In this document: piece by piece, positions 1,629-63,152 of the stretch
Layout: each line of letters starts with the position of its first letter
How positions within the stretch are numbered: position 1 is the first letter of the stretch
Origin: an uncultured Acidobacteriota bacterium
GTDB lineage: Bacteria > Acidobacteriota > Blastocatellia > Pyrinomonadales > Pyrinomonadaceae
DNA: 64,000 bases
Direction: 5' to 3'
NCBI GenBank assembly: GCA_963697975.1
Contig: OY969111.1
Span: 1,665,764-1,729,763, forward strand
The notes under the pieces: generated by a model
Database searches by the model: none
Seen by the model: the letters and a program-made list of their open reading frames with translations, nothing else
Told to the model about the DNA's origin: nothing
Made by a program: the position numbers and the translations under genes

Positions 1629-1705
1629 TCAGTGGTCAGTGGCCAGTTAAAAGCTGAGGCTCAATGGCCGCTCATCGCTCGTTCTTAACCGACCACCGAC
1701 CACTG
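1629..1705. repeat. heptamer-stem hairpin (CAGTGGT class) between ligase and thioesterase
   Basis: CAGTGGTCAGTGGCC ... CCGACCACCGACCACTG inverted repeat. Confidence 0.6.
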
Positions 1706-1715
1706 TCCACTTCTT

Positions 1716-2123
1716 ATGTCCACTCTCATCAAGGTTCGCTTCGGAGACTGTGACCCGGCGGGGTTGGTTTACTATCCCGTCATCTTCCATTATTGCCATG
1801 TTGCGATGGAGGAGTTTTTCGCGGAGCGTTGCGGCATCCCTTATCACAAATTGATGATGGATGAGCGCATCGGTTTTCCGACCGTCAACACTCAGGCGGA
1901 GTTTTTCGTGCCGCTTGTTTATGGCGATGAGGCTGAGATCGAGGTGTCGGTTATGCGCGTGGGACAAAGTTCTGCGACCTTTGAATACAGCATCCGGCGA
2001 GCGCAGGATTCGGTGCTGTGCGCCCGCTCGACAAACGTTCACGTCTCGATGAATCTGGACACACGCCGCGCCGTTCCCATTCCGGAGCGTTATCGCCTGA
2101 TCTTCGTCAAAAGCCCTGAATAG
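1716..2123 (+). CDS. 4-hydroxybenzoyl-CoA thioesterase-like hotdog-fold thioesterase (YbgC/4HBT family)
   Basis: 135 aa. N-terminal VRFGDCDPAGLVYYPVIFHY motif typical of the 4HBT family. Lies directly downstream of the CoA ligase on the same strand. Confidence 0.7.
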   Translation: MSTLIKVRFGDCDPAGLVYYPVIFHYCHVAMEEFFAERCGIPYHKLMMDERIGFPTVNTQAEFFVPLVYGDEAEIEVSVMRVGQSSATFEYSIRRAQDSVLCARSTNVHVSMNLDTRRAVPIPERYRLIFVKSPE

Positions 2124-2364
2124 TCCACACTTTTTTCTTCTACCAGAGAGCTTTTCTGGAAATCTGCCTCCACTGAGACTTTTTTTAAAGAGCAACGAAT
2201 GGTTCTCTACACCCGTCGCCGTCGCCAGCAGAAGGCGCACAGTGACTTATAAGATTCCTTTGATTCTCCTGCAAAAACTGGAAGGCGTGGATGGAATGTG
2301 CTCCCCATCCGCGCCGATTTTTTATTGCCTCACGAGACAGATTATCTGAAACCAGTGTAGCAAT

Positions 2365-2564
2365 CCGCCGCGTAGCGGCGAAGTGAATGTAGCCCGGCCT
2401 TTCAAGGCCGGGATAAGGTGAACGGTAAGTTCATCGCGTCGCGTCAGCGACGGTTGAAGGCCGACACCTCAGATTCAATCGTCGCTGACGCGACGCGGGT
2501 CATATCCAATGCTCGTTCCCGGCCTTGAAAGGCCGGGCTACATTCAGCCTGCCGCTACGCGGCG
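2365..2564. repeat. about 200 bp nested palindromic element
   Basis: Outer arms CCGCCGCGTAGCGGCG / GCCGCTACGCGGCG. Inner arms TGAATGTAGCCCGGCCTTTCAAGGCCGGG / CCCGGCCTTGAAAGGCCGGGCTACATTCA. Core CGCGTCGCGTCAGCGACG / CGTCGCTGACGCGACGCG. Confidence 0.7.
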
Positions 2565-2588
2565 ATGATGCACACTTTTCAGATTATC

Positions 2589-2921
2589 TTACCGCGCCTT
2601 TGTCTTCCCTGCCCTTTTGCGGCGGGAGGCGAATCTCTGTCTTAACTCATCGTGGTTAGTCGTACCGGGCAGATGTTCGGGCAGGTCTAGTTCATCATCA
2701 ATCAGAACTTCAGTAGGAACACCCGCGACGCGAGCGTATTGCAGGAGAATTTTTAATAGCGGCTCGCGGAGGCCGGATTCATATTTGGAAATCTGCGTAT
2801 ATGTAATCATCTCCTCAACCCCCAGACGCCGATGCATTTCGGTTTGAGAGAGACCGAGAGTAATCCTGATCTGTCTGAGCTTCTCTGCGAGGCGTTCCGG
2901 CTTCGGACGTGGATTGCCCAT
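2589..2921 (-). CDS. XRE-family helix-turn-helix transcriptional regulator
   Basis: HTH_XRE-like segment LRQIRITLGLSQTEMHRRLGVEEMITYTQISKYESG. Internal ATG at 2919-2921 is preceded by an AGGAGG RBS. Confidence 0.65.
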   Translation of the reverse strand: MGNPRPKPERLAEKLRQIRITLGLSQTEMHRRLGVEEMITYTQISKYESGLREPLLKILLQYARVAGVPTEVLIDDELDLPEHLPGTTNHDELRQRFASRRKRAGKTKAR

Positions 2922-2966
2922 TAGGAGATACCTCCTAATGCAGCAACAACCAACCCGATAACAAAC

Positions 2967-2995
2967 TTGCATTTGTCGCCTACAGGCGATAAAAT
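2967..2995 (+). promoter_or_regulatory. sigma70-like promoter TTGCAT-17-TAAAAT with palindrome TCGCCTACAGGCGA in the spacer (candidate operator), driving the Fis-HTH gene
   Basis: Hexamers and 17-nt spacing read directly from the sequence. The palindrome overlaps the spacer. Confidence 0.4.
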
Positions 2996-3104
2996 GCCTT
3001 CGCTCAAGTTATTCGCCGTGAGAATCCTTTTCTTCTCAACGGCGGCGCTCATCACTCACTTTGAGGTGGAGGCTTGAGACGACGCATTTTAGCCGTTGCT
3101 AGTT

Positions 3105-3590: not shown

Positions 3591-3625
3591 TCCAAAGCCC
3601 TCGACTAAGCTATCCACAATGTTTT

Positions 3626-6288: not shown

Positions 6289-6293
6289 AAATT

Positions 6294-6360
6294 AAGTGAT
6301 GGGTGATAAGTGATAGATGATAGGAGAAAAGTTTTTACTTATCACCCATCACTCATCACT
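6294..6360. repeat. heptamer-stem hairpin (GGTGATR class)
   Basis: GTGATGGGTGATAAGTGATAGATGATAGG ... TTATCACCCATCACTCATCAC. Confidence 0.7.
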
Positions 6361-13188: not shown

Positions 13189-13248
13189 GGCAAAACGCCA
13201 TCATGAATTGAATGCGATGCCAGCAGGTTTGTCAAGATAAAGCTGAAA

Positions 13249-13327
13249 GCGCGTAAATGGTAAATCGTGAATCGTAAATAGAAACTGCTTTCCTCCATTT
13301 ACGATTCACGATTTACGATTTACGCGC
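13249..13327. repeat. heptamer-stem hairpin (AATCGTR class)
   Basis: 31-bp stem with 1 mismatch: GCGCGTAAATGGTAAATCGTGAATCGTAAAT / ATTTACGATTCACGATTTACGATTTACGCGC. Confidence 0.8.
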
Positions 13328-13329
13328 TT

Positions 13330-13641
13330 TTACTTCTTTGCCGTTTGTTCCAGCGCATCAACGCGCTGCTGTAAAGATTCTGCCCGGCGGCTAGCTTCAA
13401 CTGAGAAGAGGAGCGCGAAGGCGGCCATTAGAATCCCGACGGCGACGATAGCCCGCCGCTTGAAGTCGCGCGCGGAGAGTCTCGGATGTCGCGCTTGCTG
13501 AGGTTTATCATCGAGCGAATCCAGCAGATTTTCCCTCCTCTTTCCGTCTGTTTCCTGCTGCAAATCCGCGAGCCATTGCTCGTCGAACTGGTGAAGAATG
13601 TGATAACTCATATGAAAAGGTCGTGAATCGTCAATCGTCAA
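13330..13641 (-). CDS. small single-TM hypothetical protein
   Basis: 103 aa with one hydrophobic helix (AIVAVGILMAAFALLFSV). Flanked on both sides by heptamer hairpins. Confidence 0.4.
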   Translation of the reverse strand: MTIDDSRPFHMSYHILHQFDEQWLADLQQETDGKRRENLLDSLDDKPQQARHPRLSARDFKRRAIVAVGILMAAFALLFSVEASRRAESLQQRVDALEQTAKK

Positions 13642-13696
13642 TCGTGAATAGAAAGAGCGTTTTTATCTATTCACGATTGACGATTGACGATTCACG
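13618..13696. repeat. heptamer-stem hairpin (AATCGTS class)
   Basis: Perfect 30-bp stem CGTGAATCGTCAATCGTCAATCGTGAATAG / CTATTCACGATTGACGATTGACGATTCACG. Confidence 0.8.
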
Positions 13697-16224: not shown

Positions 16225-16850
16225 TTGCCCGCTCCAGTCTTCAATTGACCGAGAGTTAAATTAATAAGAGCTATCGAGGAGAGCTATGGCTTAATTGCTT
16301 AAAGTCAAAATCTACATCGATTCAGCAACCCCTAGAAGTGCTTGCCGGATAAACTCTTTCAATGTCCTTTGCCGGAAGCGAGAGCTGAGGAGCAAATTCA
16401 GCTTTCGCTTCCGGCGCGGGACAGGGCAAGCGGCACGTTCGAGGGGCACTCTTGCGCGCCTGACTGGGGGTGAGAGTTCCATTGAGTCGGTTCTCCTGGG
16501 TCGCACGAACTTTCCTGCCGAAGAAGCGCTCAATTCATGTCAATTGGTGCGGCTGTCAAACCCCGTGCGGTGGGTTCGTGAAGCGCCTGAGCGCCTCAAG
16601 CCGCGCCCATTACTTAACAAGCAGTGTGCCGCGAGGGTTCAAACTTCATCTTTCAGACTCAATTCGCAAAATGGTTGGACTTAGAGAGATTCAAGTATTG
16701 GGTGGGACAAAACACGGAGAGTCTTGCTCAATCAACCTGACAGGTCAGAATGATTCTCTCCGGTCAGTAGTGCAGTCGGTGCTGAGATTTGTCGTATCCA
16801 AAAATTTCAGTAGAGGTTCGATTTCAAATCGAATGCGCGCCGAGATGAGA

Positions 16851-16971
<121 letters not shown>

Positions 16972-17242
16972 TCGACTTTCCCTTCACTCTTTTCAAATTG
17001 AACCTCCGCCAAAATTTCTTGGAAGCCCGTTAAGCTCGGTGATATTATCCAAGCCGTAGATTTTGTTTGATTGAAGCGGCACTGAAAGACATGTTGGTGT
17101 CCTCGCCTTTCCTCTTTCGTCTTTGAGCTGGCAGGTTCGACTCTAGCGATTTAACTCACATTCCGGATTTCGGCCAATCCACGCAGGAGACCTGAGGCCG
17201 AATCAATCAGCGTGACATTTCGGCACGGGCGGTCGGGCGTTC

Positions 17243-21999: not shown

Positions 22000-22668
22000 A
22001 TGACCTCTGAACTACCGGAAGAAAAAGAGCCGGGCAACGTAATCGAAGTGCGGTTCGCGCACGCCGATGTAGCAGCAAGCGACCTGGCGCATCCGGCGTG
22101 GGAAGCGGCGCAGGTCGCGGCTATCAAGCGATACTGGTCGGGCGAGGATGCGCCGGTTGGCCGTCACGCGGAAGCACGCCTTCTCTGGTCGGACGCGGCG
22201 CTGTGCGTCAGATTCGTTTGCCGTCAAACCGAACCGTTGGTCGTCCATCCTCATCCGCAAACTGAGCGGAAGACGCTGGGCTTGTGGGATCGCGACGTGT
22301 GCGAGCTTTTCATCGCGCCGGACGGACGCGAGCCGGAGCGATACTTCGAGTTTGAAGCTGCCCCGACGGGCGAATGGCTCGACCTGATAGTTTGCCAGAA
22401 GTCGGACGTGCGGGAGACTGACTGGGAGTTTCATTCAGGCATGACCGTAGCGGCAAGCGTGCAGGCAAACAGTATCACGATTGCGATGCGAGTGCCGTGG
22501 AGTGCGCTGGGGCAAGTGCCGCAAGCTGGTGAGAGGTGGCGCGCCAATCTTTTCCGCTGCGTTGGTGCAGGCGCAACACGCGGCTACCTCGCCTGGCAAC
22601 CCACGCTCACCGACGAACCCGGCTTTCATGTGCCCGCAGCCTTCGGCTGGATACGATTTAAGGGATGA
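22000..22668 (+). CDS. carbohydrate-binding-family-9-like / DOMON-like hypothetical protein
   Basis: Weak family recall. The ORF continues the operon. The first ATG downstream of the SDR stop is used. Its stop codon lies in the first unit of the GGGATGA hairpin. Confidence 0.4.
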   Translation: MTSELPEEKEPGNVIEVRFAHADVAASDLAHPAWEAAQVAAIKRYWSGEDAPVGRHAEARLLWSDAALCVRFVCRQTEPLVVHPHPQTERKTLGLWDRDVCELFIAPDGREPERYFEFEAAPTGEWLDLIVCQKSDVRETDWEFHSGMTVAASVQANSITIAMRVPWSALGQVPQAGERWRANLFRCVGAGATRGYLAWQPTLTDEPGFHVPAAFGWIRFKG

Positions 22669-22809
22669 GGGCAGAGGGATGAGGGATGAAGTAAAGAAGA
22701 GAAGGCAGAAGGCAGAAAGCGGATGGCAGCAGACCTCAGCAGTTTACTGCCTTCCGCTTTGTGCCTTCTGCTTTCTCTTCTTTCATCCCTCATCCCTCAT
22801 CCCTCATCC
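22662..22809. repeat. heptamer-stem hairpin (GGGATGA class), about 148 bp, between convergent genes
   Basis: GGGATGAGGGCAGAGGGATGAGGGATGAAG ... CTTTCATCCCTCATCCCTCATCCCTCATCC. Inner arms GAAGGCAGAAGGCAGAAAGCGGATGGCAG / CTGCCTTCCGCTTTGTGCCTTCTGC. Confidence 0.8.
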
Positions 22810-22816
22810 TTGCTTT

Positions 22817-23260
22817 TCACCCTTTCGTCAACGTTTCGAGATAGGCGTTGAAGCGTGCGCGGTCTTCATTGCTCATCCAGATAATGTGGACCCCGATGAG
22901 GTATCCGGTATCCGCTCCGTCTTCTTCGAGGGGGGTGTAGCGAACGGGAGCAGCCTTGACATTGACCACGCTGGTGGGCAGCTTGAGGATGATTTCGAGC
23001 GTGCGGTTTTCGCCCGTGATGTACTGGCCGCCGATGCGTATGGTGGGCACGACGAGCGCCAACCCGGTCGCGCTGATGTCGCGCGTGTAGCCTGCCAGTT
23101 TCAACGGCGGCCCTGTTTTCTCACCGCCGGGCTTCGAGTGGGGCAGCGAGATGCTCAACGCCAGTCCCGCTTCGAGATGCGTCAAGTATCGCGGCGCGGC
23201 GCGACGGTTACCCACAATCTCGCGCAAGCGGCTCGCAATGGAACGTATCAACTCCGGCAT
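22817..23260 (-). CDS. PilZ-domain protein
   Basis: RxxxR (RRAAPRY) and DxSxxG (DISATGLAL) motifs of the c-di-GMP-binding PilZ domain. Confidence 0.6.
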   Translation of the reverse strand: MPELIRSIASRLREIVGNRRAAPRYLTHLEAGLALSISLPHSKPGGEKTGPPLKLAGYTRDISATGLALVVPTIRIGGQYITGENRTLEIILKLPTSVVNVKAAPVRYTPLEEDGADTGYLIGVHIIWMSNEDRARFNAYLETLTKG

Positions 23261-23403
23261 TTGGCTTCAAACCTCACAGACGCTTCCACACACCGCTCGG
23301 CGGCGATAAGGTAAATCGGGAGAGAGGGAAACCAGCTAACTAGCACGGAAACACAAAGTGAGGGACCGGGCAAGAAAAACATTCTAAAGGCAAAATGAAA
23401 AGA

Positions 23404-23472
23404 CGTAAATCGTGAATCGTAAATCGGAACAGCTTTTTTCCATTTACGATTCACGATTTACGATTTACGAAT
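23404..23472. repeat. heptamer-stem hairpin (AATCGTR class)
   Basis: CGTAAATCGTGAATCGTAAATCGG ... CCATTTACGATTCACGATTTACGATTTACG. Confidence 0.75.
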
Positions 23473-23475: not shown

Positions 23476-24276
23476 TTACTTCACCCCCGGTGGCAGGACG
23501 AGTGGCTTTCCCCCGACATCCGCGCTGCGGAGTCCTGACTGATCCAGGAGGAAAGAGAAACGGCCTGTCCGCCCGTAGCGCGTGGGTTCGGCTCCGGCAG
23601 TCCAACTCTTGCCGTCTTTGGCGAGCGTCAGGCGAAAGCGATAGCCCATTGATTCGGGCGCTTCGATGTCTTTCGGGAGAAGTCCGGCGGTGACGAGCGT
23701 CGGGAAGTCTGCGTAAGTGTTGTTGTGCTGTGAGGCGTAAGCTAACTGCACAATGCTGATGCGTTGCAACATCGCCTGCACTTCGTTGTGATGCGTCTCG
23801 ATGCGCGCTTCAAAGAAGAACCTCTTCCCGGCCTTTTTGACAACCTCCTGGCTGTCACGATCTCCGACAATCCACCCGCTCGCGTCGCGCATCAAGGTGA
23901 CGGGTTCGGCCTGCGCGGTCTTGTCCGCGTCGGCGATCTTGACGAAGACGGTGGCGATGTCGCCGCTCGTCTGCTCGCCACTGACCTCAATTTTTTCGGG
24001 GATGGCCGCCGCCATCCTCTCGAAATCAGGACGCAACTCTTCAAGCTCTTCCGCGCTCAAGCCTGCAATCGCGGGCGTGTAGATCGTCAACTGGAAAGCT
24101 TCTGTGAACTTGCGTTCGCGCATCCGCTTGTAAAACTCGCGAACCGTTTCGGTCGGTGTGCGCGCCTGACTGTTTTGCGCGAAGCCTTCCCCGCCCGCAC
24201 ATGAAACGAGCACAAGAAGCGAAGCGATAAGCGTTGAAAGAAAGCGCAAATGATTGCTGGATGTAGAATAGTTCAT
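23476..24276 (-). CDS. putative lipoprotein, hypothetical
   Basis: Start moved to MNYSTS. Signal/lipobox-like LLVLVSCAG. The longer ORF extension covers an intergenic hairpin. Confidence 0.45.
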   Translation of the reverse strand: MNYSTSSNHLRFLSTLIASLLVLVSCAGGEGFAQNSQARTPTETVREFYKRMRERKFTEAFQLTIYTPAIAGLSAEELEELRPDFERMAAAIPEKIEVSGEQTSGDIATVFVKIADADKTAQAEPVTLMRDASGWIVGDRDSQEVVKKAGKRFFFEARIETHHNEVQAMLQRISIVQLAYASQHNNTYADFPTLVTAGLLPKDIEAPESMGYRFRLTLAKDGKSWTAGAEPTRYGRTGRFSFLLDQSGLRSADVGGKPLVLPPGVK

Positions 24277-24325
24277 AACCTGTCTTCTTAATTCAAGGAA
24301 CTTGCGATGCTTAAAAAGCAAAGGT

Positions 24326-24375
24326 GAAGGATGAAAGGATGCTGATTCAAATTTATTCAGCATCCTTTCATCCTT
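24326..24375. repeat. hairpin (GGATGAA class), perfect 19-bp stem
   Basis: AAGGATGAAAGGATGCTGA-ttcaaatttat-TCAGCATCCTTTCATCCTT. Confidence 0.75.
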
Positions 24376-24405
24376 ACATCGCTTCAGCCTTCATTCCCGG
24401 CTCTC

Positions 24406-30123: not shown

Positions 30124-30822
30124 ATGGTCACGCTTCTCATCACCTCTTTTTTCCTGCTTGCTGGAATCACTTACGTCATTTATCTCTGGCAACGCCCTTC
30201 GTCTAATCAACAAGCGGAGCTTAACTTTCCGCCACCACGCGCTGTCGGACTGTTCGACGATAACGGCTTAAATGAGCTGCCGCGTGAGTTACCAGCCGGA
30301 GAACAGGTCGCAGAAGAAGACCGTCGGGCGCTGCTCGCACGCGCCGCAGCAGGTGACAAAGAAGCGCTCACGGAAGCGCTCGCCTCACCGGATACGGGCG
30401 TTTACGATGAAGTCTTAAACAAACTAATCGAGGGCGCGCATTCCGATAAGGCGCTTCTTGCGCTCGCTTCCTACATCACGAGAAGCGACGCGCATCTCAG
30501 AATCAACAATCGTCTGGCTGAAAAATTCATCGAAAGCTGGAAGAGCGCGCCCGACAGGAATTCGACGGCGAAGATGCTGCACGTCGCGGCGCTCGCCGGT
30601 GACGCGAGCTTTTATCAAACGGCAATCGAAACAGCGTATCAATTCTGGCGCGAGCGGAGATTAACAGGAATCTCTGCGGACGAGTTGCGCCAGCTCATCG
30701 AGAGCGAATTCTGGATACTCGCTCCCCCAGTGAGAAATTCCGGCGCGGGCTTTGTGCTCAAACGCAAGCTCGCGCAACTTCGCCGCCAACTCGTCGCAGC
30801 GGCAAAACAAAGTGATGGGTGA
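30124..30822 (+). CDS. membrane-anchored hypothetical protein
   Basis: N-terminal TM (LLITSFFLLAGITYVIYLW) with an alpha-helical remainder. Stop codon embedded in the GGTGATR hairpin. Confidence 0.4.
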   Translation: MVTLLITSFFLLAGITYVIYLWQRPSSNQQAELNFPPPRAVGLFDDNGLNELPRELPAGEQVAEEDRRALLARAAAGDKEALTEALASPDTGVYDEVLNKLIEGAHSDKALLALASYITRSDAHLRINNRLAEKFIESWKSAPDRNSTAKMLHVAALAGDASFYQTAIETAYQFWRERRLTGISADELRQLIESEFWILAPPVRNSGAGFVLKRKLAQLRRQLVAAAKQSDG

Positions 30823-30890
30823 TGGGGTGATAGGTGATAAGACAAAACATGTTCTTTCTTATCACCCATCACTTATCACCTATCACCTGA
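30810..30890. repeat. heptamer-stem hairpin (GGTGATR class) overlapping a stop codon
   Basis: AGTGATGGGTGATGGGGTGATAGGTGATAAG ... CTTATCACCCATCACTTATCACCTATCACC. Confidence 0.75.
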
Positions 30891-30902
30891 TTGAGGTTCA
30901 TT

Positions 30903-33098: not shown

Positions 33099-33125
33099 CA
33101 CTAGAAATCTTTCGGTTATTTGTTT

Positions 33126-33158
33126 AGGCTGCTCTCTCACGGAGCAGCCTAAATTTTT
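33126..33158 (+). terminator. intrinsic terminator after flotillin-like gene
   Basis: AGGCTGCTC-tctcacg-GAGCAGCCT followed by AAATTTTT. Confidence 0.6.
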
Positions 33159-36355: not shown

Positions 36356-36545
36356 TTATCCCCGAAGGGGATATATATAATAGCCGGGGGCATCGCCCCC
36401 GGTTACACAACACCACACGTTCCGACCCTGAAGGGGTCGTATATGCAACATTGAATATACGACCCTTTCAGGGTCGGATTCTTTATGGGCGTGCGTGACC
36501 AGGGGCGTTGCCCCTGGCTATTGCATATGACCCTTTCAGGGTCAA
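36356..36545. repeat. composite REP-like multi-hairpin element
   Basis: ATCCCCGAAGGGGAT. CCGGGGGCATCGCCCCCGG. GACCCTGAAGGGGTCGTATAT ... ATATACGACCCTTTCAGGGTC. ACCAGGGGCGTTGCCCCTGG. GACCCTTTCAGGGTC. Confidence 0.75.
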
Positions 36546-38331: not shown

Positions 38332-38334
38332 AAT

Positions 38335-38405
38335 AGAAGATGGACGATGGGCGATAAACGAAAGACGACGAGCTTTCCGTCGTCCATCGTCTATGGTCTA
38401 TCGTC
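38335..38405. repeat. heptamer-stem hairpin (GACGATG class) with tight inner hairpin GACGACG-agctttc-CGTCGTC
   Basis: Read directly from the sequence. Confidence 0.6.
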
Positions 38406-39363: not shown

Positions 39364-39457
39364 AGAGTGATGGGTGATAGGTGATGGGTGATAGGTGATA
39401 AGAAAGAACGACGTGTTTTCTCTTATTACCTATCACCCATCACCTATCACTTATTAC
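39364..39457. repeat. heptamer-stem hairpin (GGTGATR class) encoding a gene C-terminus
   Basis: GAGTGATGGGTGATAGGTGATGGGTGATAGGTGATAAG ... CTTATTACCTATCACCCATCACCTATCACTTATTAC. Confidence 0.8.
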
Positions 39458-40207
39458 CAGCCCATCGTAAGCGAACTCGACTCCATCCGGCAGCTTCGCG
39501 CTGTCGCGCGCGTGGAGAACGTCGTGCGCGAGGTGCGTCAGGTATGCGCGGCGGGGTTTGATTTCGGAGATGTATTCGAGCGCGCGGTCGAGCCAGAGAT
39601 GCGTCGGGTGCGGCTTGAAGCGCAGGCAGTCGAGCACGAGCACATCCAGATCGCGTAAGCCCTCAATCGTTTTGGCCGGAATCTCGCTCAAGTCCGTTGC
39701 GTAGGCGAAATCGTTGAAGCGATACGCGATGACCGGCAGCCGCCCGTGAATCACTTCGAGCGGCGTCACGATCAAATCCTTTCCGATAGAAAAAGGCGCA
39801 TCCTTTACGACCGTATGGGCGACGACCTGCGGCAACCCGCCGCCGAAAGATGTCGGCTCGAAGACGTACTGGAAGATGCGGCGGATGTCTACCCACGCGC
39901 GCTCGTTCGCGTAGACGCCGAGCGAGCCGTGACGGAAGTTGAGAGGGCGGATGTCGTCGAGACCGAAGATATGATCGGCGTGGCAATGTGTGATGAGAAT
40001 GGCGTCGAGCCAGTTGATCTTTTGGCGGAGCGCCTGCTGGCGGAAATCCGATGAAGTGTCCACCAGCACAGTCTGCCCGCCATGCTCTATCAGCACAGAG
40101 ACACGCAGCCGCTTATCGCGCGAATCAACGGACGAGCACGTCTCACACTCACAGCCGATAGAAGGCACGCCCGTCGATGTCCCTGTGCCGAGGAAAGTCA
40201 GCTTCAT
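39440..40207 (-). CDS. MBL-fold metallo-hydrolase (PhnP/YhfI-like)
   Basis: HCHADH motif. Its last 6 codons plus the stop are encoded in the GGTGATR hairpin arm. Confidence 0.75.
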   Translation of the reverse strand: MKLTFLGTGTSTGVPSIGCECETCSSVDSRDKRLRVSVLIEHGGQTVLVDTSSDFRQQALRQKINWLDAILITHCHADHIFGLDDIRPLNFRHGSLGVYANERAWVDIRRIFQYVFEPTSFGGGLPQVVAHTVVKDAPFSIGKDLIVTPLEVIHGRLPVIAYRFNDFAYATDLSEIPAKTIEGLRDLDVLVLDCLRFKPHPTHLWLDRALEYISEIKPRRAYLTHLAHDVLHARDSAKLPDGVEFAYDGLVISDR

Positions 40208-40210
40208 TTT

Positions 40211-40290
40211 CGTAAATCGTAAATGGTAAATCGTAAATGGTGAAAAGCGTTTTCATCTATTCACGATTTACGATTCACGATTTACGCGCT
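40211..40290. repeat. heptamer-stem hairpin (AATCGTA class)
   Basis: CGTAAATCGTAAATGGTAAATCGTAAATGGTGAA ... TTCATCTATTCACGATTTACGATTCACGATTTACG. Confidence 0.7.
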
Positions 40291-40950: not shown

Positions 40951-41089
40951 CTTGATTCCCTTGTCCGGCGCAGAGCTTAAACTCAAACTGCGCGCCCATA
41001 TCTTTTCGCAGAGTGTTTGCTTTAATTCAATGATGGTAGCACCTAAATTCGCACGCTCGCAAGAAACGGTCAATTCGGGAATCGCCTCG

Positions 41090-41198
41090 CATCCCCGAAG
41101 GGGATGAACATAATAGCTGGGGGCAAGCGCGTAATGTGTGTTGGCGCGTGTCGCCGGGGGCGATGCCCCCGGCTATTAAATATGATCCTTTCAGGGTC
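41090..41198. repeat. composite REP-like element, second copy
   Basis: CATCCCCGAAGGGGATG ... ATAGCTGGGGGC ... CGCCGGGGGCGATGCCCCCGGCTAT ... GATCCTTTCAGGGTC. Same order of motifs as at 36.4 kb. Confidence 0.7.
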
Positions 41199-41235
41199 AA
41201 AGAAACTGGACTCAACTTGGAACATCAGGCCGCAG

Positions 41236-41263
41236 GCTTTAGACTTCAATCACCGGACTTTGG
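41236..41263. repeat. tandem 4x GGACTTT heptamer directly upstream of mazG start
   Basis: GGACTTTGGACTTTGGACTTTGGACTT. No obvious complementary arm. Confidence 0.6.
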
Positions 41264-41266
41264 ACT

Positions 41267-42115
41267 TTGGACTTTGGACTTAAACCTATGCCCGCTACAT
41301 TTGACGATCTGGTTCAGCTAATGGCGCGCCTTCGCTCGCCTGAAGGATGCCCCTGGGATCGTGAGCAGACTTACGAGACGCTCGCGCCGATGCTGTTGGA
41401 AGAAGCCTACGAAGCATTCGAGGCGGTTGAGGAGGCGCGCGAGGGTCGCCCCCTTGAGTTGCGCGACGAGCTTGGCGACCTGCTCTTTCAAATCGTCTTC
41501 TACGCGCAGGTCGCAGCAGAGCGCGGCGAGTTTACTATCTCTGACGTGACGGAGGCGATTCACTCGAAGATGGTGCGCCGCCACCCGCATGTCTTCGGTG
41601 ACGCCGAAGCGCAGGATGCGGCGGAAGTCCTTCGCAACTGGGAAGCAATCAAAGCAGAAGAGAAACGCGCCGCCGGAAAAGATGATAGTGCCCGAAGAGA
41701 ATCCCTGCTCGACGGAGTTTCATTAAAGACGCCCGCGCTGATGGAAGCGCACCAGCTTTCGACCAAAGCGGCGCGCGTCGGCTTTGACTGGCAACGCATC
41801 GAAGACATCTTCGATAAGCTGCACGAAGAGATAGACGAGTTGCGCGCGGCGATCAGCCGCCATGCCGAGTCCGAAGCGGAAGGCGACAAGGCGCACGTAC
41901 GCGAGGAGTTGGGCGATCTTCTCTTCGCCGTCACCAACATCGCGCGCCATTTGCAGGTCGAGCCGGAAGCGGCTCTGAAATCAACCAACCGCAAATTCCG
42001 CCGCCGCTTTCAATACATCGAAGAAGGTTTGAAGTCGCGCAATCGAACGCTCGATGCCGCCACGCTCGAAGAGATGGAAGAACTCTGGCAGGAAGCGAAA
42101 GGCGGTGAGAGGTAA
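41267..42115 (+). CDS. mazG: nucleoside triphosphate pyrophosphohydrolase MazG
   Basis: Tandem MazG domains ([26 protein letters not shown]). Confidence 0.85.
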
Positions 42116-42178
42116 TGGGTGATAGGTGATAAGAAAGACCGTGTTTTCTCCTATCACCTATCACCCATCACCCATCAC
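42113..42178. repeat. heptamer-stem hairpin (GGTGATR class)
   Basis: GGTAATGGGTGATAGGTGATAAGAAAGACCGTGTTTTCTCCTATCACCTATCACCCATCACCCATCAC. Loop nearly identical to the copy at 39.4 kb. Confidence 0.8.
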
Positions 42179-42621
42179 GGCTTTTTCGGCTTGAGTTCCC
42201 ACAGCACGTTGACGATGACCCAGCGACCGTTGAACTTCGCCATGTGCAGATAGTCTACCCAATCCGAAGCGACGACCTTGACGCTGGCCGCGTTCTCGTA
42301 AACATCCAAAATCGCCACGTCCTTTTGCTGTTTCTCCTTCGGCGTCTCTTTCCCGCCGCCGCGCCTCGTTCCCTGCACCAGAGTCATCGCGCTCATCTGG
42401 CTGAACTGGCTCATCCCCTCTTTGCTCGTGCGGACGATTCTTTTGGCTAACTCAGGATGAAGCGCGCGTTCCATGCGCTCGCTGTTTCCTTCGTACCAGC
42501 CTTCGATGTAGTCGAGCGCCGTTTGCTTGATCGCCGCCGCGTCTGCCGGGGCTTGCGCGTGCGCTTTTGAAACGAATGCTAAGAAGAGGAACATCAGCAC
42601 GAGGCCGAATTTTCTTTGCAT
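42175..42621 (-). CDS. NTF2-like (SnoaL/DUF4440-type) secreted protein
   Basis: Signal peptide with a small NTF2-like fold pattern. Stop codon lies in the hairpin arm. Confidence 0.5.
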   Translation of the reverse strand: MQRKFGLVLMFLFLAFVSKAHAQAPADAAAIKQTALDYIEGWYEGNSERMERALHPELAKRIVRTSKEGMSQFSQMSAMTLVQGTRRGGGKETPKEKQQKDVAILDVYENAASVKVVASDWVDYLHMAKFNGRWVIVNVLWELKPKKP

Positions 42622-43663: not shown

Positions 43664-43745
43664 CTCGATTGCGGAATGCGGATTGATAAAGACAAGCGCC
43701 CGCATTCTTCAATCCGCAATCCGAAATCCGAAAATCCGCAATACT
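43664..43745. repeat. heptamer-stem hairpin (AATCCGM class)
   Basis: GATTGCGGAATGCGGATTGA ... TCAATCCGCAATCCGAAATCCGAAAATCCGCAA. Confidence 0.65.
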
Positions 43746-54523: not shown

Positions 54524-54587
54524 AAATCCGAAGCTTCCATCTTAAACTTAAATTTTCAGAGTTGAACTCAAACTCGACAAGAAGTTA

Positions 54588-54682
54588 GACAGGATTAACA
54601 GGATTAGCAAGATTAAGAAAACCAGATAACTCAAGAAGGTCGAGTGCTTTTAATTTTATCCTGTCAATCTTGTAAATCCTGT
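54588..54682. repeat. heptamer-stem hairpin (CAGGATT class)
   Basis: AGACAGGATTAACAGGATTAGCAAGATTAAGAAAA ... TTTTAATTTTATCCTGTCAATCTTGTAAATCCTGTC. Confidence 0.75.
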
Positions 54683-55297
54683 CTATTTCTTCTCAGTATC
54701 GGAGATAAATTTTTGCGGCGCGTCGAAGCGATTCTGTTCCGAAGCGCCTTCAGTCGCCTTCTCTTTCAGGTAAGCATTGAACTCACTGGAGCGATTGCGC
54801 GGAATGCTCAGACTCTGCCAGCCGGTTGATTTGAAATGCTTCGCCAGAAAAACGATCTGCCCGATGTGATAACCGTAGTGCGTCATCTGCCGGTTGATGG
54901 CTTTAACGACCGTGTGCGCCTCGCCGCGAATCAGAACCGTCTTCATCAAATCTTCAGGCTGCAAGGATTCGATTGCATTGAACACGCAGGCCCAGCCCTT
55001 CTCCCACTGCGCGAGCATTTCATCTCTGGTCGTTTCGGGCGTGATGACGAACTCCATGTCACGATTACGGTCAGGTTTCTCCCCGTCGGTCGTCAAAAAG
55101 TCCGTCCAGCGCGAGAGCATGTTTCCGACCATATGCTTGATGATGACGGCAATGCTGTTAGCTTCTTCGTCTATGGCGCGAAAGAATTCCTCATCGGTGA
55201 CTTGCCCGAACGCACCTTCGGCCAGCTTCTTGTAGCCGCGAAAATTCAAAACGGCGTCTTCGAGATAATGTTTGGCAAGCGAATTTTCCATAATCAA
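54683..55297 (-). CDS. DinB/DUF1572-family protein
   Basis: Four-helix DinB-like pattern. Moderate recall. Stop lies in the hairpin arm. Confidence 0.5.
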   Translation of the reverse strand: MIMENSLAKHYLEDAVLNFRGYKKLAEGAFGQVTDEEFFRAIDEEANSIAVIIKHMVGNMLSRWTDFLTTDGEKPDRNRDMEFVITPETTRDEMLAQWEKGWACVFNAIESLQPEDLMKTVLIRGEAHTVVKAINRQMTHYGYHIGQIVFLAKHFKSTGWQSLSIPRNRSSEFNAYLKEKATEGASEQNRFDAPQKFISDTEKK

Positions 55298-55326
55298 CCT
55301 TGTAGGGACAGGGCCTGTCCCTGCAT

Positions 55327-59851: not shown

Positions 59852-59948
59852 TAGACAGGATTAACAGGATTAGCAAGATTAAGAAGACAAGACAGGAAGA
59901 AGTAGCTTGATGCTTCTTCCCTTTAATCCTGTCCATCTTGTTAATCTC
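59852..59948. repeat. heptamer-stem hairpin (CAGGATT class), second copy
   Basis: Left arm AGACAGGATTAACAGGATTAGCAAGATTAAGAAG is identical over 33 nt to the copy at 54.6 kb. Confidence 0.75.
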
Positions 59949-60033
59949 GGTCTATATTCTTTTCTTTTTCGATTTAGCTAATTGCCCAGGTATGTTGACA
60001 CTTGCGAAGCGAGCATGAGAGAGTGCGCGCGAG

Positions 60034-60630: not shown

Positions 60631-60665
60631 CGCTTCCGGCGCGTCCTCGCTTCTCTTTATCACTT

Positions 60666-61136
60666 ATGAATGAGCAAAGTCTTCAGGAACGCTACTCGCC
60701 ACATGGTACGTGCTTCGGCTGTGGCCCGATGAATGAGAAGGGTTTGCGGATTCGTAGTTTTGAACAGGAGAACGATGAAGTCGTCTGCGAGTGGCAGCCT
60801 GAAAGTTATCACGAGGCATATCCCGGAATGCTCAACGGCGGCATCATCGGGACGTTGATGGATTGCCATTCCAACTGGACTGCCGCCTGGCATCTGATGC
60901 GGCGTGGAGGGCTGGATCATGCGCCCTGCACGGTGACGGCTGATTATGCGATCAAGCTCAAGCGACCGACGCCGACCGACGCACCGGTTAAATTAATCGC
61001 TCGCGTCGTCGAATCTGAGGATGATCGCGCTATCGTCGAAGCCGAGTTGATTGCCGGTGGGAAAATCTGCGCCACCTGTCGTGGCACATTCGTCGCAGTC
61101 AAGCCCGGACACCCGGCGTATCATCGCTGGGGATGA
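60666..61136 (+). CDS. PaaI-family hotdog thioesterase
   Basis: GGIIGTLMDCHSNW pattern. Confidence 0.65.
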   Translation: MNEQSLQERYSPHGTCFGCGPMNEKGLRIRSFEQENDEVVCEWQPESYHEAYPGMLNGGIIGTLMDCHSNWTAAWHLMRRGGLDHAPCTVTADYAIKLKRPTPTDAPVKLIARVVESEDDRAIVEAELIAGGKICATCRGTFVAVKPGHPAYHRWG

Positions 61137-61138
61137 AA

Positions 61139-61224
61139 AGCAGGGATGAGGGCGGAGGGATGAGGGATGAACGGAATCTGATTCAAGTTGAATCACTACG
61201 CTTTCATCCCTCATCCCTCATCCC
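61139..61224. repeat. heptamer-stem hairpin (GGGATGA class), second copy
   Basis: CAGGGATGAGGGCGGAGGGATGAGGGATGAA ... CTTTCATCCCTCATCCCTCATCCC. Confidence 0.75.
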
Positions 61225-62025
61225 TTTCTTTGCCGCCATGAGACGCTCGACGCGCGGCAGTTCAATCGGGTTCGCCCAGTGACCGTCGGCTTTGAAGGAT
61301 GAGCCGACGATGAAGCCGTCGGCAAAGGCGTAATAGTCGGCGAGGTTATCGGCATTGATGCCAGAGCCGAGCAAGACGGGCAGAGCGGAGCACGCTTTGG
61401 CCTCGCGCACGTCCTCAATTTTGGGCGGCTCACCCGTCACGCTGCCGGTGATGATAACCGCATCGCCGCGCATGAATTCAACCGCATGAGCCATCTCGCC
61501 AACACTGATGTCCGCCGTGATGGCGTGGGAAGAATGTTTCTTCTTGATGTCGGCCCACACCTGCACGCGTTCAGCGCCAATCAGCTTGCGATAGCGTAGA
61601 AGCTCTGCGGCTGATGCTTCAATCAAGCCTTCGTCGGCAACGTGGGCAAAGGCGTAGCCCTCGGCGCGTATGAAATCCAACCCGGCGGCGTGCGCTACAG
61701 CCATCGCTTCCGTGTTCGCGGCGGCCAGCACCTGCACGCCGACGGGCAGCTTGCTCTCGATTTTCACCGCCTGACCGATGACGGCCATCGCCGCTACGAT
61801 TTCCGGGCCGACGCTGCCGCGCAGGTAAGGCGCGTCGTGCATATTCTCAATCATCATCCCTTCCACGCCGCCCGTGCGGTAAACACGAGCCTCGCGCACG
61901 GCCAGTTCCGTCAACTCATCCACTGACAGCTTACTCAAGGGAGCGCCCGGCAACGCGCCGACATGAATCACGCCGATCACGGGTTTAGAGTTGGGGAATA
62001 AACTGTCCAGCACGCGACCGCTCAC
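61204..62025 (-). CDS. BtpA/SgcQ-family TIM-barrel protein
   Basis: N-terminal KPVIGVIHVGALPG motif. Confidence 0.65.
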   Translation of the reverse strand: MSGRVLDSLFPNSKPVIGVIHVGALPGAPLSKLSVDELTELAVREARVYRTGGVEGMMIENMHDAPYLRGSVGPEIVAAMAVIGQAVKIESKLPVGVQVLAAANTEAMAVAHAAGLDFIRAEGYAFAHVADEGLIEASAAELLRYRKLIGAERVQVWADIKKKHSSHAITADISVGEMAHAVEFMRGDAVIITGSVTGEPPKIEDVREAKACSALPVLLGSGINADNLADYYAFADGFIVGSSFKADGHWANPIELPRVERLMAAKKGMRDEG

Positions 62026-62582
62026 TTTGATCCTTTCGAGTTCGCCCGCTCGTTCGTGATAAAGACTACGTCCAGACGGTTGAAGTTCTGATTGACGGCG
62101 ACGGTCGCGCCCGGCTGCAAGCGAAAGGATAACATCACGTCGTCGTCACGCTGCTCGATTCGCATATCGGCAAAGCCGCGACCATTGGCGTCGCCGCGCG
62201 GCGAAACGTATGCAGCCTGCGGAATCATCACGCAGACGCGCTCGCCTTCAGCGAAAGATTTGTAATCGTTAAGCGGCGCATCGGACGTGAGCGTAAAACG
62301 CGCGCCGTCCTGCGATTCATTGCGACGCAGCATCAGGATGCGTTTCTTGAGCGGCTTCGCTGAAGAAGGAATGATGGCAGGAGCCATCAGGCTGAACGAA
62401 CTGTTATCACCGGCAACCCGCGCGCCCGTTCCCGCGATGAGCGCCAGGAGAAGAGCGAGGGCGACAAAAGCGCGATGACGGCAGCTGTTCCTGCGTGTTA
62501 AGCGCAAGCGAATACGTGCGTCAGCGTGGATTGAGTTGATGATAGACGTGTAGACAGTCGAAGAGCGCAGAAAAGTCGGCAT
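62022..62582 (-). CDS. signal-anchored hypothetical protein
   Basis: ATGA overlap with the BtpA-family gene (61204-62025). N-terminal hydrophobic segment. Confidence 0.4.
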   Translation of the reverse strand: MPTFLRSSTVYTSIINSIHADARIRLRLTRRNSCRHRAFVALALLLALIAGTGARVAGDNSSFSLMAPAIIPSSAKPLKKRILMLRRNESQDGARFTLTSDAPLNDYKSFAEGERVCVMIPQAAYVSPRGDANGRGFADMRIEQRDDDVMLSFRLQPGATVAVNQNFNRLDVVFITNERANSKGSK

Positions 62583-62780
62583 TGGGGGTTATGACTCCGG
62601 TTCTGCAAAAGTTGCCGGGGGCGAGGCGGCATTGTGCGAATTCTTCTAAGATCAAGAGCGCACATCCGGCTTTCAAAAGGCGCTATAATATAATCGCTTT
62701 TGCCTGAGATTCACAGCAGTTTAATTAGCCTGACAAAGGCTCGCCCGTCACCACCCAATTTAACCCACAGAGGAGGCAGC

Positions 62781-63005
62781 ATGGACAGAGGAGAAAGAGA
62801 AGACACAACAATCTATAAGGTCGTCGTCAATCACGAGCAGCAGTATTCCATCTGGCCAGCCGACCGCGAGAACGCTCTCGGCTGGAGTGATGCCGGAAAG
62901 ACCGGAACGAAGCAGGAGTGTCTGGACTACATCAAGGAAGTGTGGACGGACATGAGACCGCTCAGCTTGAGAAAGAAGATGGAAGAAGCCGCCACCAAAA
63001 AGTAG
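62781..63005 (+). CDS. MbtH-like protein
   Basis: [15 protein letters not shown] ... GW ... [12 protein letters not shown] signature. GAGGAGG RBS. Confidence 0.8.
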
Positions 63006-63015
63006 CGGCTTCCAT

Positions 63016-63152
63016 GTAGGACAGACATTCCTGTCTGTCGTGGGACAGGCATTCCTGCCTGTCATAACGTGCGTTAGCACGTTCATCAATATTCGCTAAT
63101 AAGTATTCGCGCTCTCCGCGCTCAATGACAGACAGGAATGTCTGTCCTACGC
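63016..63152. repeat. complex multi-palindrome element bounded by a perfect 24-bp inverted repeat
   Basis: GTAGGACAGACATTCCTGTCTGTC ... GACAGACAGGAATGTCTGTCCTAC. Internal palindromes GACAGGCATTCCTGCCTGTC and AACGTGCGTTAGCACGTT. Confidence 0.75.

Follow-up and report, generated by a model that had tools for sequence, protein, structure and literature searches.

Pairs of inverted GGGAATC heptamer arrays occur in Xanthomonas, with 70–75 pairs per genome situated near the 3′ ends of open reading frames (ORFs) (PMC4692102). These arrays belong to X. campestris and X. axonopodis, while GGGGAYT repeats are known from Nostoc (Rehm et al., 2015, PMC4692102) and TAACTGA repeats from Beggiatoaceae and cyanobacteria (PMC4679880). 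STRR heptamers of cyanobacteria and long SSRs with heptanucleotide units in general have also been reported (Mazel, 1990; Mrazek, 2007; both as covered in PMC4692102 and PMC4679880), and slippage has previously been put forward as a hypothesis for SSRs of this unit length (PMC4692102, PMC4679880). A further class of repeats, the REPINs, consists of long hairpins formed from two inverted units (PMC3116915, PMC3733652).

The stretch of DNA analyzed here, 64,000 nucleotides in length and referred to as the window, comes from a soil acidobacterium of the Pyrinomonadaceae. Its heptamer hairpins share with the Xanthomonas and Nostoc arrays the tandem 7-nt units (typically ∼4 per array), the location that is ∼90% intergenic and near the 3′ end of the preceding ORF, and the recurrence between the same gene pairs in related species with very variable length and sequence, and they share with Xanthomonas the two inverted arrays able to form stem-loops (PMC4692102). 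Unlike in Xanthomonas, where there is essentially one G-rich unit that has been interpreted as a G-quadruplex (G4), at least 8 unrelated units are found in 64 kb, few of which are G4-capable; each genome has unit families of its own, with concerted evolution across sites, and both nesting and whole-class replacement are seen. As far as the STRR and long SSRs are described in the two papers that cover them, the likeness extends to an over-representation of 7-nt units relative to other periods, to intergenic positions that often adjoin start codons, and to the applicability of the slippage hypothesis, but those repeats are mostly direct and of one or a few units, whereas ∼65–80% are paired as hairpins here, in many classes. 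Extragenic palindromes in many copies, species-specific families, and positions within operons and at the 3′ ends of genes are likewise features of REP, BIME, and REPIN elements (PMC3116915, PMC3733652). However, a tandem 7-nt substructure is absent from REPs, which are usually tagged with GTAG or CGTC, a tag that the heptamer hairpins lack. The foldback (FB) transposons of Drosophila have long inverted arms of short tandem repeats with varying arm length, as do the present elements, in which arm length differs among copies; FB transposons are eukaryotic, kilobase-scale, sometimes equipped with coding cargo, and of other repeat periods, and the resemblance is an analogy with no homology implied.

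Heptamer hairpins in the window

The window contains 13 strict heptamer hairpins against 0.03 expected from 30 shuffles, located at 1.6, 6.3, 13.2, 13.6, 22.7 (a nested double), 23.4, 30.8, 38.3, 39.4, 40.2, 42.1, 43.7, and 61.1 kb. They make up 13 of the 19 hairpins with an arm of at least 18 nt (0.43 expected, 30 shuffles). Tandem repeat detection with TRF returned mostly period-7 rows, which occur as left and right arms, and the enrichment of 7-nt periodicity over shuffled controls is also evident from 11 stringent period-7 arrays (0 in 20 dinucleotide shuffles), with no stringent array of period 6 or 8–12 in the window. The class patterns GTGATRGGTGATR and CGTRAATCGTRAAT gave 22 and 21 matches, respectively, where ∼0.1 was expected, and the predicted folds range from −28 to −115 kcal/mol (z −3.65 to −15.2).

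Four hairpins belong to the AATCGTR class (coordinates of all hairpins are given without strand). The copy at 13246..13330, also readable as CGTRAAT (ΔG −54.4, z −11.9), adjoins the stop of the minus-strand ORF 13330..13641, and its right arm is identical (30/30) to that of the copy at 23404..23470, which lies 5 nt from the stop of the minus-strand gene 23476..24363. A CGTGAAT/CGTCAAT subclass is represented at 13621..13696 (ΔG −53.9, z −14.6), with arms complementary at 31/31 positions, and the hairpin at 40210..40286 is 4 nt from a DUF1844 gene stop and 2 nt from an MBL gene start. In the GGTGATR class, the hairpin at 6295..6360 (ΔG −28.3, z −6.8) lies between two minus-strand genes, 6 nt from a stop (6367) and 6 nt from a start (6288), and its minimum free energy and centroid structures differ by a register shift of one unit. 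The copy at 30810..30887, between plus-strand genes, has a stop at 30822 within its 5′ arm, and the next longest-ORF start is an uncertain TTG at 30891. At 39367..39458 (ΔG −54.3, z −10.6), a copy with a 14-nt super-period contains the stop of an MBL-fold gene within one arm and lies 3 nt from the ribF start, and the arms at 42098..42185 (ΔG −52.7, z −8.3) contain both stops of the convergent mazG and lumazine-binding-domain genes.

The nested double hairpin at 22661..22809 (ΔG −114.9, z −15.2) lies between convergent genes (CBM9 stop at 22668, PilZ stop at 22817); its inner hairpin, at ∼22693–22783, is of the GAAGGCA class, and its outer arms are of the GGGATGA class, identical at 29/30 positions to the copy between convergent genes at 61142..61225 (ΔG −49.2, z −6.7). 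A degenerate CAGTGGT hairpin at 1630..1705 (ΔG −30.6, z −3.65) occupies the gap from the stop of an AMP-binding gene (1628) to the start of a thioesterase gene (1716), and a degenerate GACGATR hairpin at 38333..38405 takes up the spacer between the ribF stop and the ABC1-kinase start. The bias toward gene 3′ ends noted at first reading is borne out, with 12 of the 13 heptamer hairpins at most 14 nt from a stop codon or overlapping one; the sole exception (43667..43742; 5′ arm CGGATTG, 3′ arm CAATCCG) is on the 5′ side of a WD40 gene.

The 7-mer-armed hairpins described in the first-pass annotation are real and far above chance, but the annotation overstated their number. Four tandem-unit hairpins have units of 8, 9, or 10 nt: the 24.3 kb element (24327..24391) has an 8-nt unit (AAGGATGA), with a loop akin to the one at 61.1 kb; the supposed CAGGATT heptamers (54586..54685 and 59853..59953) are two copies of a 9-nt unit (ACAGGATTA) with identical left arms (35/35); and the supposed CACAGAG heptamer (16847..16973) is built from units of ∼10 nt (CAGAGGGGCA) plus 8 nt and is not 7-periodic. 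The two "GACAGRC" sites (55.3 and 63.0 kb) proved to be REP-like palindromes that bear a GTAG tag and lack tandem units. Of the 39 gaps measuring 30 nt or more, 20 contain a hairpin, these REP-like ones included, which is about half and not almost every intergenic region as had been claimed. One direct array was also found, a GGACTTT ×4 array on the plus strand (41255..41281) without an inverted partner, which resembles the direct STRR/SSR arrays as far as these are described; a promoter-like TTGGAA-N17-TAGACT (∼41217–41246) lies on one side of it and the mazG ATG (41288) on the other.

Distribution across relatives

The comparison set comprised 80 related genomes, each represented by one neighborhood around ribF (1.21 Mb in total), with genes called crudely as longest ORFs. 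The elements are not confined to the window, since 7-periodic hairpins account for 129 of 270 long hairpins in the 1.21 Mb and are carried by 56 of 81 sources. Arrays of period 7 (157) outnumber those of period 5 (26), 6 (19), 8 (5), and 9 (3), and 100–123 of the 157 are paired with an inverted array no more than 170 nt away. The stems are 20–45 bp long with 43% GC, and the 5′ arms are C-poor (13% C vs. 29% G), so that the 3′ arms are G-poor. A stem follows the stop codon at a median of 1.5 nt (108 cases), in agreement with the 3′-end bias of the window, and precedes the next start codon by a median of 5 nt. In metagenome contigs, hairpins of this kind directly precede atpG and separate acpP from fabF. 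In many relatives, the divergent region at mazG has an inverted copy of the array upstream of the promoter, with inverted arrays on both sides of it.

Unit families and their turnover

Copies of a class share their arms and, to a varying degree, their loops, as had been noted for the 39.4 and 42.1 kb pair. Units are shared (at most one mismatch) between different sites of one genome almost as often as between orthologous sites (14.8% and 15.4%, respectively, vs. a background of 5.1%). Non-orthologous sites of one genome shared 16 units where 6.3 were expected (permutation P = 0.001), and GGGTGTA, for example, occurs at three sites in one relative (L018). The earlier description of dispersed repeat families is upheld by these genome-specific units together with near-identical arms, and partly loops, at unrelated loci. 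Across classes, only the architecture is conserved, as had been proposed: no common apex, loop module, or core was found, and the 1.21 Mb contain 66 different canonical units, which argues for a common generating mechanism.

Orthologous sites retain a hairpin as the unit changes, with both arms changing together. Relative to L001, whose nucleotide identity to the window is 88.6%, the hairpins at 39.4 and 42.1 kb show a difference of exactly 7 nt in a single arm, and the 38.3 and 40.2 kb sites have wholly different units between flanks that are ∼90% conserved, yet the arms match one another within each genome; the 40.2 kb site in L001 is a CAGTGGT-class hairpin. Similarly, the site orthologous to the GGTGATR hairpin at 30.8 kb is GGGATGA in L002. 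The spacer between the MBL gene stop and the ribF start contains a heptamer hairpin in most of ∼45 genomes inspected, with units forming a mutational series (GGTGATR, GGGATGA, GTGATGA, GTGACGA, GTACTGA, and GGACTGA). At the 38.3 kb site, L001, L004, L005, L013, and L018 carry hairpins of other units, and the site is empty in L002 and in the more distant genomes inspected (2–25-nt spacers in 11, long non-hairpin spacers in the others). Nesting is seen at 22.7 kb in the window and at 7065–7205 in L002.

Origin and role of the hairpins

On balance, we favor the view that these heptanucleotide-repeat palindromes are a self-homogenizing class of intergenic repeats, family-wide in Pyrinomonadaceae, that is probably REP-like at the RNA level and does not serve as canonical intrinsic terminators. 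This reading draws on the dominance of period 7, the 7-nt steps in arm length, the co-change of arms, the sharing of units, nesting, the filled/empty site, strand neutrality, intercistronic placement, and the Xanthomonas precedent. Replication slippage would gain or lose whole 7-nt units and spread variants along an arm, a step visible in the sequences themselves. A strand-neutral process at the DNA level, most likely intramolecular template switching as in quasipalindrome correction, would keep the arms the mirror images that are observed. Units may then be copied or converted among hairpins at different sites of one genome, which would produce the genome-specific unit families observed, and new hairpins would arise within the loops of older ones, in keeping with the nesting. 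Survival would be limited to copies in gene-flanking spacers, which would account for positions right after stops and often right before the next start. REPs stabilize upstream mRNA, and the transcripts of the heptamer palindromes would fold into 20–45-bp stems that most plausibly act like REP/BIME elements, with candidate roles as barriers at 3′ ends, sites of processing, or hairpins that couple translation within operons.

A possible but doubtful alternative is that the hairpins are selected intercistronic RNA stem-loops that set the relative expression of genes within an operon. They might do so through RNase III or barriers to exonucleases, or by masking the start region of the next gene for as long as the preceding ORF is untranslated, and the heptamer arrays would then be only the route by which a long stem evolved. 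A hairpin is kept at the same spacer family-wide despite full sequence turnover, and such persistence at one site could mean selection on RNA function instead of molecular drive. In addition, the 5′ arm contains or adjoins the stop and the 3′ arm is followed by the next start after 0–6 nt, some hairpins are inside probable atp and fab operons, and SD-like motifs, rare in the genome (∼8/27), were found before none of the starts that adjoin a hairpin. The G-poor 3′ arms also fit, and the C-poor asymmetry of the 5′ arms is not predicted by a purely neutral model. However, no RNA-strand signature was found in stability (ΔG −43.5 sense vs. −43.9 antisense, P = 0.94), G·U-type mismatches (52 vs. 47), or flanking T-runs (3.00 vs. 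2.99 T), some genomes have an empty 5–25-nt spacer at the same sites, and inverted arrays with a promoter in their "loop" would not be co-transcribed.

It is unlikely that the hairpins are non-autonomous mobile elements (REPIN-, MITE-, or foldback-like) moved to existing hairpins or gene ends by a RAYT/HUH-type or other hairpin-recognizing transposase. Such movement would fit near-identical copies at unrelated loci, genome-specific unit families, one class nested within the loop of another, and the GTAG-tagged elements of the window, which place REP-type elements in the same genome. The outright replacement of a class at 40.2 kb is hard to obtain by point mutation and sweeps at ∼12% divergence and may need insertion or replacement by a mobility function. 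The presence/absence polymorphism, which the first-pass annotation had put forward as a sign of mobility, is present at 38.3 kb, but the filled-versus-empty junction has no target-site duplication. Nor do the classes have a common core or a conserved terminal tag (GTAG in 5/129 hairpins, CGTC in 3/129), and a Pfam scan of ∼38 window ORFs matched no transposase family. Units drift by 1–2 substitutions at sites that remain occupied, a pattern easier to reconcile with evolution or conversion in place than with repeated transposition.

Rho-independent, often bidirectional terminators, with stems long and repetitive by happenstance, are an improbable reading of the same hairpins. The position just 3′ of stops agrees with it, as does the lack of any hairpin in the confidently divergent gaps of the window; T is enriched outside the stems (2.97 vs. 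2.03 per 9 nt; at least 5 T in 16% vs. 4%), and many copies upstream of ribF end in CTTTT. However, the long stems of 43% GC are unlike the organism's canonical terminator at 33122–33154, no more than that 16% have at least 5 T in the 9 nt following the stem, and T-runs, ΔG, and G·U mismatches have no sense bias. Many hairpins also adjoin the next start inside probable operons, for example before ribF, atpG, and fabF, at a median distance that leaves no space for a promoter, and in relatives the mazG promoter, which lies in a divergent region, has inverted arrays on both sides. Least probable are G4 or other non-B DNA structures, or binding-site arrays for a protein that reads 7-nt units (for example, one with a cold-shock or S1-type OB fold): a G4-forming interpretation has been given for the heptamers of Xanthomonas and Nostoc (PMC4692102), heptamer units are bound by CspB (as reviewed in PMC4679880), and the GGGATGA class carries G-tracts, but at least four GGG runs per arm occur in only 10/129 hairpins and 66 unrelated units argue against one sequence-specific binder.

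The heptamer palindromes of the Pyrinomonadaceae are a real and fast-evolving system akin to the heptamer repeats of Xanthomonas and cyanobacteria. Of the two roles suggested by the first-pass annotation, that of terminator is not supported, and that of mRNA stabilizer is plausible; the hairpins are tolerated at gene ends, where they are probably REP-like RNA stem-loops rather than intrinsic terminators.

Abundance and periodicity

Palindromes with 7-nt periodicity, in which each arm of an intergenic inverted repeat is built of tandem heptamer units, are abundant in the window, and the array, hairpin and fold evidence places them far beyond shuffled controls, so that the elements described in the first-pass annotation are real. 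Tandem Repeats Finder (TRF) returned mostly period-7 rows in left/right pairs, and an inverted-repeat scan found arms of 24–48 nt, 74–100% complementary, at the same places. A stringent tandem-array scan detected 11 arrays of period 7 in the window vs 0 in 20 dinucleotide shuffles, and none of period 6 or 8–12. With a gapless detector requiring arms of at least 18 nt, 19 hairpins were found, including 13 that are 7-periodic, compared with 0.43 and 0.03, respectively, for 30 shuffles of the window. Two class patterns gave 22 and 21 matches vs ∼0.1 expected, and the folding of ten window hairpins yielded −28 to −115 kcal/mol (z-scores −3.7 to −15). No part of the window matched an Rfam covariance model at the gathering threshold. 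The original list of classes stands for most sites, which are heptameric, but not for six others: the 24.3 kb hairpin has an 8-nt unit, a single element with a 9-nt unit is present twice, at 54.6 and 59.9 kb, the 16.9 kb hairpin has units of ∼10 nt, and the 55.3 and 63.0 kb sites, assigned to a heptamer class, are ordinary REP-like palindromes starting with GTAG and lacking tandem units. The statement that almost every intergenic region carries such a hairpin was too broad, as any such hairpin occurs in 20 of the 39 gaps of at least 30 nt.

The hairpins extend beyond the window, and 7-periodic examples occur in 56 of 81 sources (the window and 80 related loci around ribF, L001–L080; 1.21 Mb in total). 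The window has a GC content of ∼56%, an uncultured Acidobacteriota MAG encodes a RibF with 94% identity to that of the window, and the best 80 genomic matches are nearly all Pyrinomonadaceae/Blastocatellia MAGs. Synteny with window positions 31–47.8 kb is seen in L001 (88.6% nucleotide identity) and L002 (82%). Across the 1.21 Mb, 157 arrays have period 7, with 26, 19, 5, and 3 of periods 5, 6, 8, and 9, and an inverted partner lies within 170 nt of 100/157 (12-mer) or 123/157 (9-mer) of the period-7 arrays. Canonical units number 66, with at least 8 in the 64-kb window. Heptamer hairpins account for 129 of 270 long hairpins, beside minor classes of period 9 (19), 10 (9), and 8 (7), and reach a density of 203 per Mb in the window, compared with 106 per Mb over all sources; their GC content is 43% vs 56% for the genomes and their median arm is 28 nt. 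Metagenome contigs that differ widely in GC content also contain heptamer hairpins, built of other units, which agrees with reports from Xanthomonas and cyanobacteria (PMC4692102). A metagenome scan with the GGTGATR triple unit returned heterogeneous contigs (GC 0.32–0.73) with the pattern inside a hairpin in only 12/120, and this unit was therefore rejected as a diagnostic marker.

Arm composition and other repeat families

The 5′ arms of the 129 heptamer hairpins (window and L001–L080) have the composition A.30, C.13, G.29, and T.285, and purine-rich arms are more often 5′ (79 vs 43). A C-poor, G-rich 5′ arm entails a G-poor 3′ arm, and because the elements are palindromic the C-poverty of the 5′ arm applies to either strand. 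The bias is not accounted for by a neutral model or by a terminator model. Stop codons are commoner in 5′-arm units (58/129, vs 24/129 for the 3′ arm) because that arm is C-poor, and a role of the heptamers in supplying stops in all three frames was rejected since 49/129 contain none. G-quadruplex formation was likewise rejected for most classes, with four or more GGG runs per arm in 10/129 hairpins and 1/13 in the window, and the classes have no apex or loop module in common beyond a mild A-richness. Two unit variants (R = A/G) alternate in many arrays, giving a 14-nt super-period; period 14 outscores 7 in TRF, and alternating arrays lie at 6293–6322, 30858–30886, 39362–39399, and 40212–40286. 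The alternation may fix the stem register. The 6.3 kb hairpin has two folding registers, one unit apart.

The GTAG-tagged REP-like palindromes form a family distinct from the heptamer hairpins. They lie at 55302–55332 and 63016–63151 (e.g., TGTAGGGACAGGGCCTGTCCCTGCATCTACA), start with GTAG, and are REP-like (cf. PMC3733652). At the 63.0 kb locus, GTAGGACAGAC...GTCTGTC-type units number three, of which two stand in inverted orientation, 87 nt apart, in a REPIN-like arrangement, and an inverted repeat at 2366–2564 with 48-nt arms and an internal GTAGC is grouped with this family. Heptamer hairpins share with REP/BIME/REPIN elements an extragenic, multicopy nature and genome-specific sequence families, but they are not tagged palindromes of 20–40 nt, as the end tags GTAG and CGTC occur in only 5/129 and 3/129, respectively. 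A further, GC-rich inverted-repeat family (CCCCGAAGGGGAT..ATAATAGCCGGGGGC; GACCCTTTCAGGGTC) occurs at 36360–36543 and 41111–41178. L001 and L002 have it at the orthologous sites as well, there in a different structure.

Kinship among copies and turnover at orthologous sites

Copies within a class share arms and partly loops at different window sites, which bears out the earlier proposal of dispersed repeat families and indicates that the hairpins are copies of each other and not independent inventions. Alignments within the AATCGTR class (four copies), the GGTGATR class (four copies) and the GGGATGA class extend over the arms and part of the loops, with right arms identical at 30/30 positions between the 13.2 and 23.4 kb hairpins and outer arms at 29/30 between those at 22.7 and 61.1 kb. 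Hairpins can also be nested, as at 22.7 kb, where a GAAGGCA-class hairpin sits in the place of the short loop of the 61.1 kb copy.

Comparison with L001 reveals two modes of change. At 39.4 kb (the spacer between an MBL-fold gene and ribF) and 42.1 kb (adjoining mazG) the unit is kept and one arm differs by exactly one 7-nt unit, whereas at 38.3 kb (the spacer between ribF and an ABC1-kinase gene) and 40.2 kb (adjoining a DUF1844 gene) the flanks are ∼90% identical and the entire spacer is a hairpin of another unit, for example AATCGTR in the window and CAGTGGT in L001 at 40.2 kb. Of ∼45 genomes, most have a heptamer hairpin between the MBL-fold gene stop and the ribF start, and a few have a bare spacer of 5–25 nt there; the hairpin units include GGTGATR, GGGATGA, GTGATGA, GTGACGA, GTACTGA, GGACTGA, and others, often one or two substitutions apart, and every unit change is mirrored in the opposite arm. 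Hairpins with ATTGCCA/ATTGCCG units occupy the ribF-upstream spacer of L028, L043, L053, and L067. In L037 and L041 there is no hairpin upstream of ribF and a single TGATTGCCAAC follows the stop codon, which is either what a deletion has left of a hairpin or the starting point of a new one. Gain or loss of hairpins at a given site is also seen between the ribF stop and the ABC1-kinase start, a spacer that is filled with differing units in the window, L001, L004, L005, L013, and L018; L002 and the more distant genomes inspected have it empty or, in several of the latter, long but without a hairpin.

When a unit match was defined as at most one mismatch, 5.1% of units matched between different sites in different genomes, 15.4% between orthologous sites in different genomes, and 14.8% between different sites in the same genome. 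Same-genome matches numbered 16 vs 6.3 ± 2.6 when units were shuffled among genomes within each orthologous site (P = 0.001). For instance, three sites of L018 carry GGGTGTA and two carry GTTCCRA, and L002 has GGGATGA at sites that hold GGTGATR in the window. The unit-sharing figures and the permutation together indicate concerted evolution of the unit families in each genome, at sites that are themselves retained.

Gene context and translation starts

The hairpins lie at gene ends and between cistrons, with gene identities near the window hairpins checked against Pfam. Among the 13 window hairpins, 12 overlap a stop codon or lie within 14 nt of one, and the neighboring genes are co-oriented for nine and convergent for four. 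Across all loci, a median of 1.5 nt separates the stop codon from the stem and a median of 5 nt the stem from the next start codon. Many hairpins adjoin the following start, including those upstream of ribF, atpG, and fabF, and the GGTGATR metagenome scan recovered same-class hairpins in the acpP–fabF gap and 6 nt upstream of atpG. Depletion from divergent gaps is true of the window but, owing to the mazG-upstream site, does not extend to the relatives. A promoter-like TTGGAA-N17-TAGACT conserved across many Pyrinomonadaceae precedes mazG (window region 41217–41290), and in many relatives inverted heptamer arrays flank it on either side, so that this putative promoter lies inside the ‘loop’. 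The window has only a direct GGACTTT leader array, which ends 6 nt before the ATG (41288) and counts four copies, vs six in L001; its unit is similar to the mazG −10 region (TTTAGACTT). Nearby on the minus strand (41032–41065), GATGGTAGCACC-N14-CGCAAGAA is conserved in ∼20/31 related loci inspected and resembles a −35 TTGCGA/−10 TACCAT promoter of the DUF1844 gene, the true start of which is probably the ATG at 40950 rather than the TTG at 41073.

Shine-Dalgarno-like motifs were found upstream of ∼8/27 ATG-start ORFs in the window and before none of the window starts that adjoin a hairpin, which suggests, from sequence, that initiation in this organism is largely SD-independent. Cyanobacteria and Bacteroidetes, in which start-adjacent heptamer arrays have been reported, are likewise SD-poor lineages. 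The ORFs 22481–23314 (+), 1647–2240 (−), and 16470–17033 (+) traverse hairpins, have no Pfam match, and clash with better-supported neighbors (CBM9/PilZ; thioesterase 1716–2123); they are probably spurious products of the repeats.

Origin and alternative explanations

Bacterial heptamer repeats (STRR) have been known since 1990 and were recognized in 2007 as the most over-represented long simple repeat, and their origin, the cause of the 7-nt length and their function are unsettled in the literature (PMC4692102, PMC4679880). Inverted GGGAATC heptamer pairs number 70–75 per Xanthomonas genome, lie close to the 3′ ends of ORFs and have no known function (PMC4692102), and direct heptamer arrays occur in cyanobacteria and Beggiatoaceae (PMC4679880). 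Judged as long SSRs (7-nt units, at least three copies, excess over other periods), the hairpin arrays show the period-7 excess and, between the window and L001, the unit-step length polymorphism of slippage; STRR-type repeats, however, comprise one or few units per genome (STRR1-3, GGGAATC, TAACTGA) against at least 8 per 64 kb here. The close inverted pair near an ORF 3′ end is shared with the Xanthomonas-type arrays, but the G-tract that those have in every unit is not. The architecture is thus already known from Xanthomonas, and what is new is the many unit classes, the concerted genome-specific evolution at conserved sites, the nesting, and the host phylum, as no paper linking Acidobacteria with heptamer repeats was found among the open-access papers and preprints covered.

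The 7-nt periodicity is probably generated by slippage, after the hypothesis cited in earlier reports (PMC4692102, PMC4679880). Template switching, as in quasipalindrome correction, would most likely keep the two arms matched, and copying or conversion by some route would spread units between sites. The hairpins probably have in addition a REP-like post-transcriptional role. That they are principally a selected RNA device is less likely: their gene-end placement would suit one, but they carry no strand-specific RNA signature, and 69 hairpins between co-oriented genes gave no sign that pairing is maintained through the RNA of one strand. In this set the mean dG is −43.5 for the sense and −43.9 for the antisense strand (P = 0.94), and the stem mismatches comprise 52 would-be G·U pairs in sense, 47 in antisense, and 72 other types. 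A transposase-driven mobile element is unlikely to be the main explanation; hairpins are dispersed and come and go at given sites, but no transposase family had a Pfam match among ∼38 ORFs scanned in the window, and the single junction examined (38.3 kb, filled in the window vs empty in L002) has no target-site duplication of the kind that flanks MITEs. REP-type elements go with a cognate RAYT (Y1 transposase) gene, and the DNA covered here comprises 64 kb of this genome and 20-kb pieces of relatives.

It is quite improbable that the hairpins are a lineage-specific expression device combining stop/start coupling, 7-nt tuning and a hairpin-copying activity in a host that rarely uses Shine-Dalgarno sequences. 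Consecutive genes would then have their stop and start codons juxtaposed at the stem base, upstream translation would be required to free the downstream start region or hand over the ribosome, heptamer slippage would provide 7-nt ‘tuning steps’ in stem length, and the uniformity of genome-specific unit families over hundreds of sites would be due to a dedicated hairpin-copying activity. Transcription terminators, one of the roles initially suggested, are the least probable of these explanations, since an intrinsic terminator has a short GC-rich stem, a small loop and a sense U-tract, whereas the hairpins have a median arm of 28 nt and 43% GC with equal strands in dG, G·U and T-richness, the T content just outside the stems showing a modest richness (2.97 vs 2.03 per 9 nt) that is the same in sense (3.00) and antisense (2.99); five or more T among the 9 nt occur in 16%. 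The organism has ordinary terminators beside the heptamer hairpins, as a canonical one at 33122–33154 follows an SPFH/Band-7 gene with a GC-rich 14-bp stem (GTTTAGGCTGCTC...GAGCAGCCTAAAT) and then TTTTT.

Implications

For the annotation of Acidobacteria, hairpin stems are liable to be mis-called as terminators, spurious ORFs probably arise from them (e.g., 22481..23314 and 1647..2240), and short-read assemblies may also break there. The Pyrinomonadaceae hairpins constitute an informative natural experiment, with many unit classes per genome and ∼100–200 hairpins per Mb. Across dozens of related genomes the same spacer stays filled with a hairpin even as its unit changes jointly in the two arms and between sites, which makes slippage, arm-to-arm homogenization, and between-site conversion directly testable.
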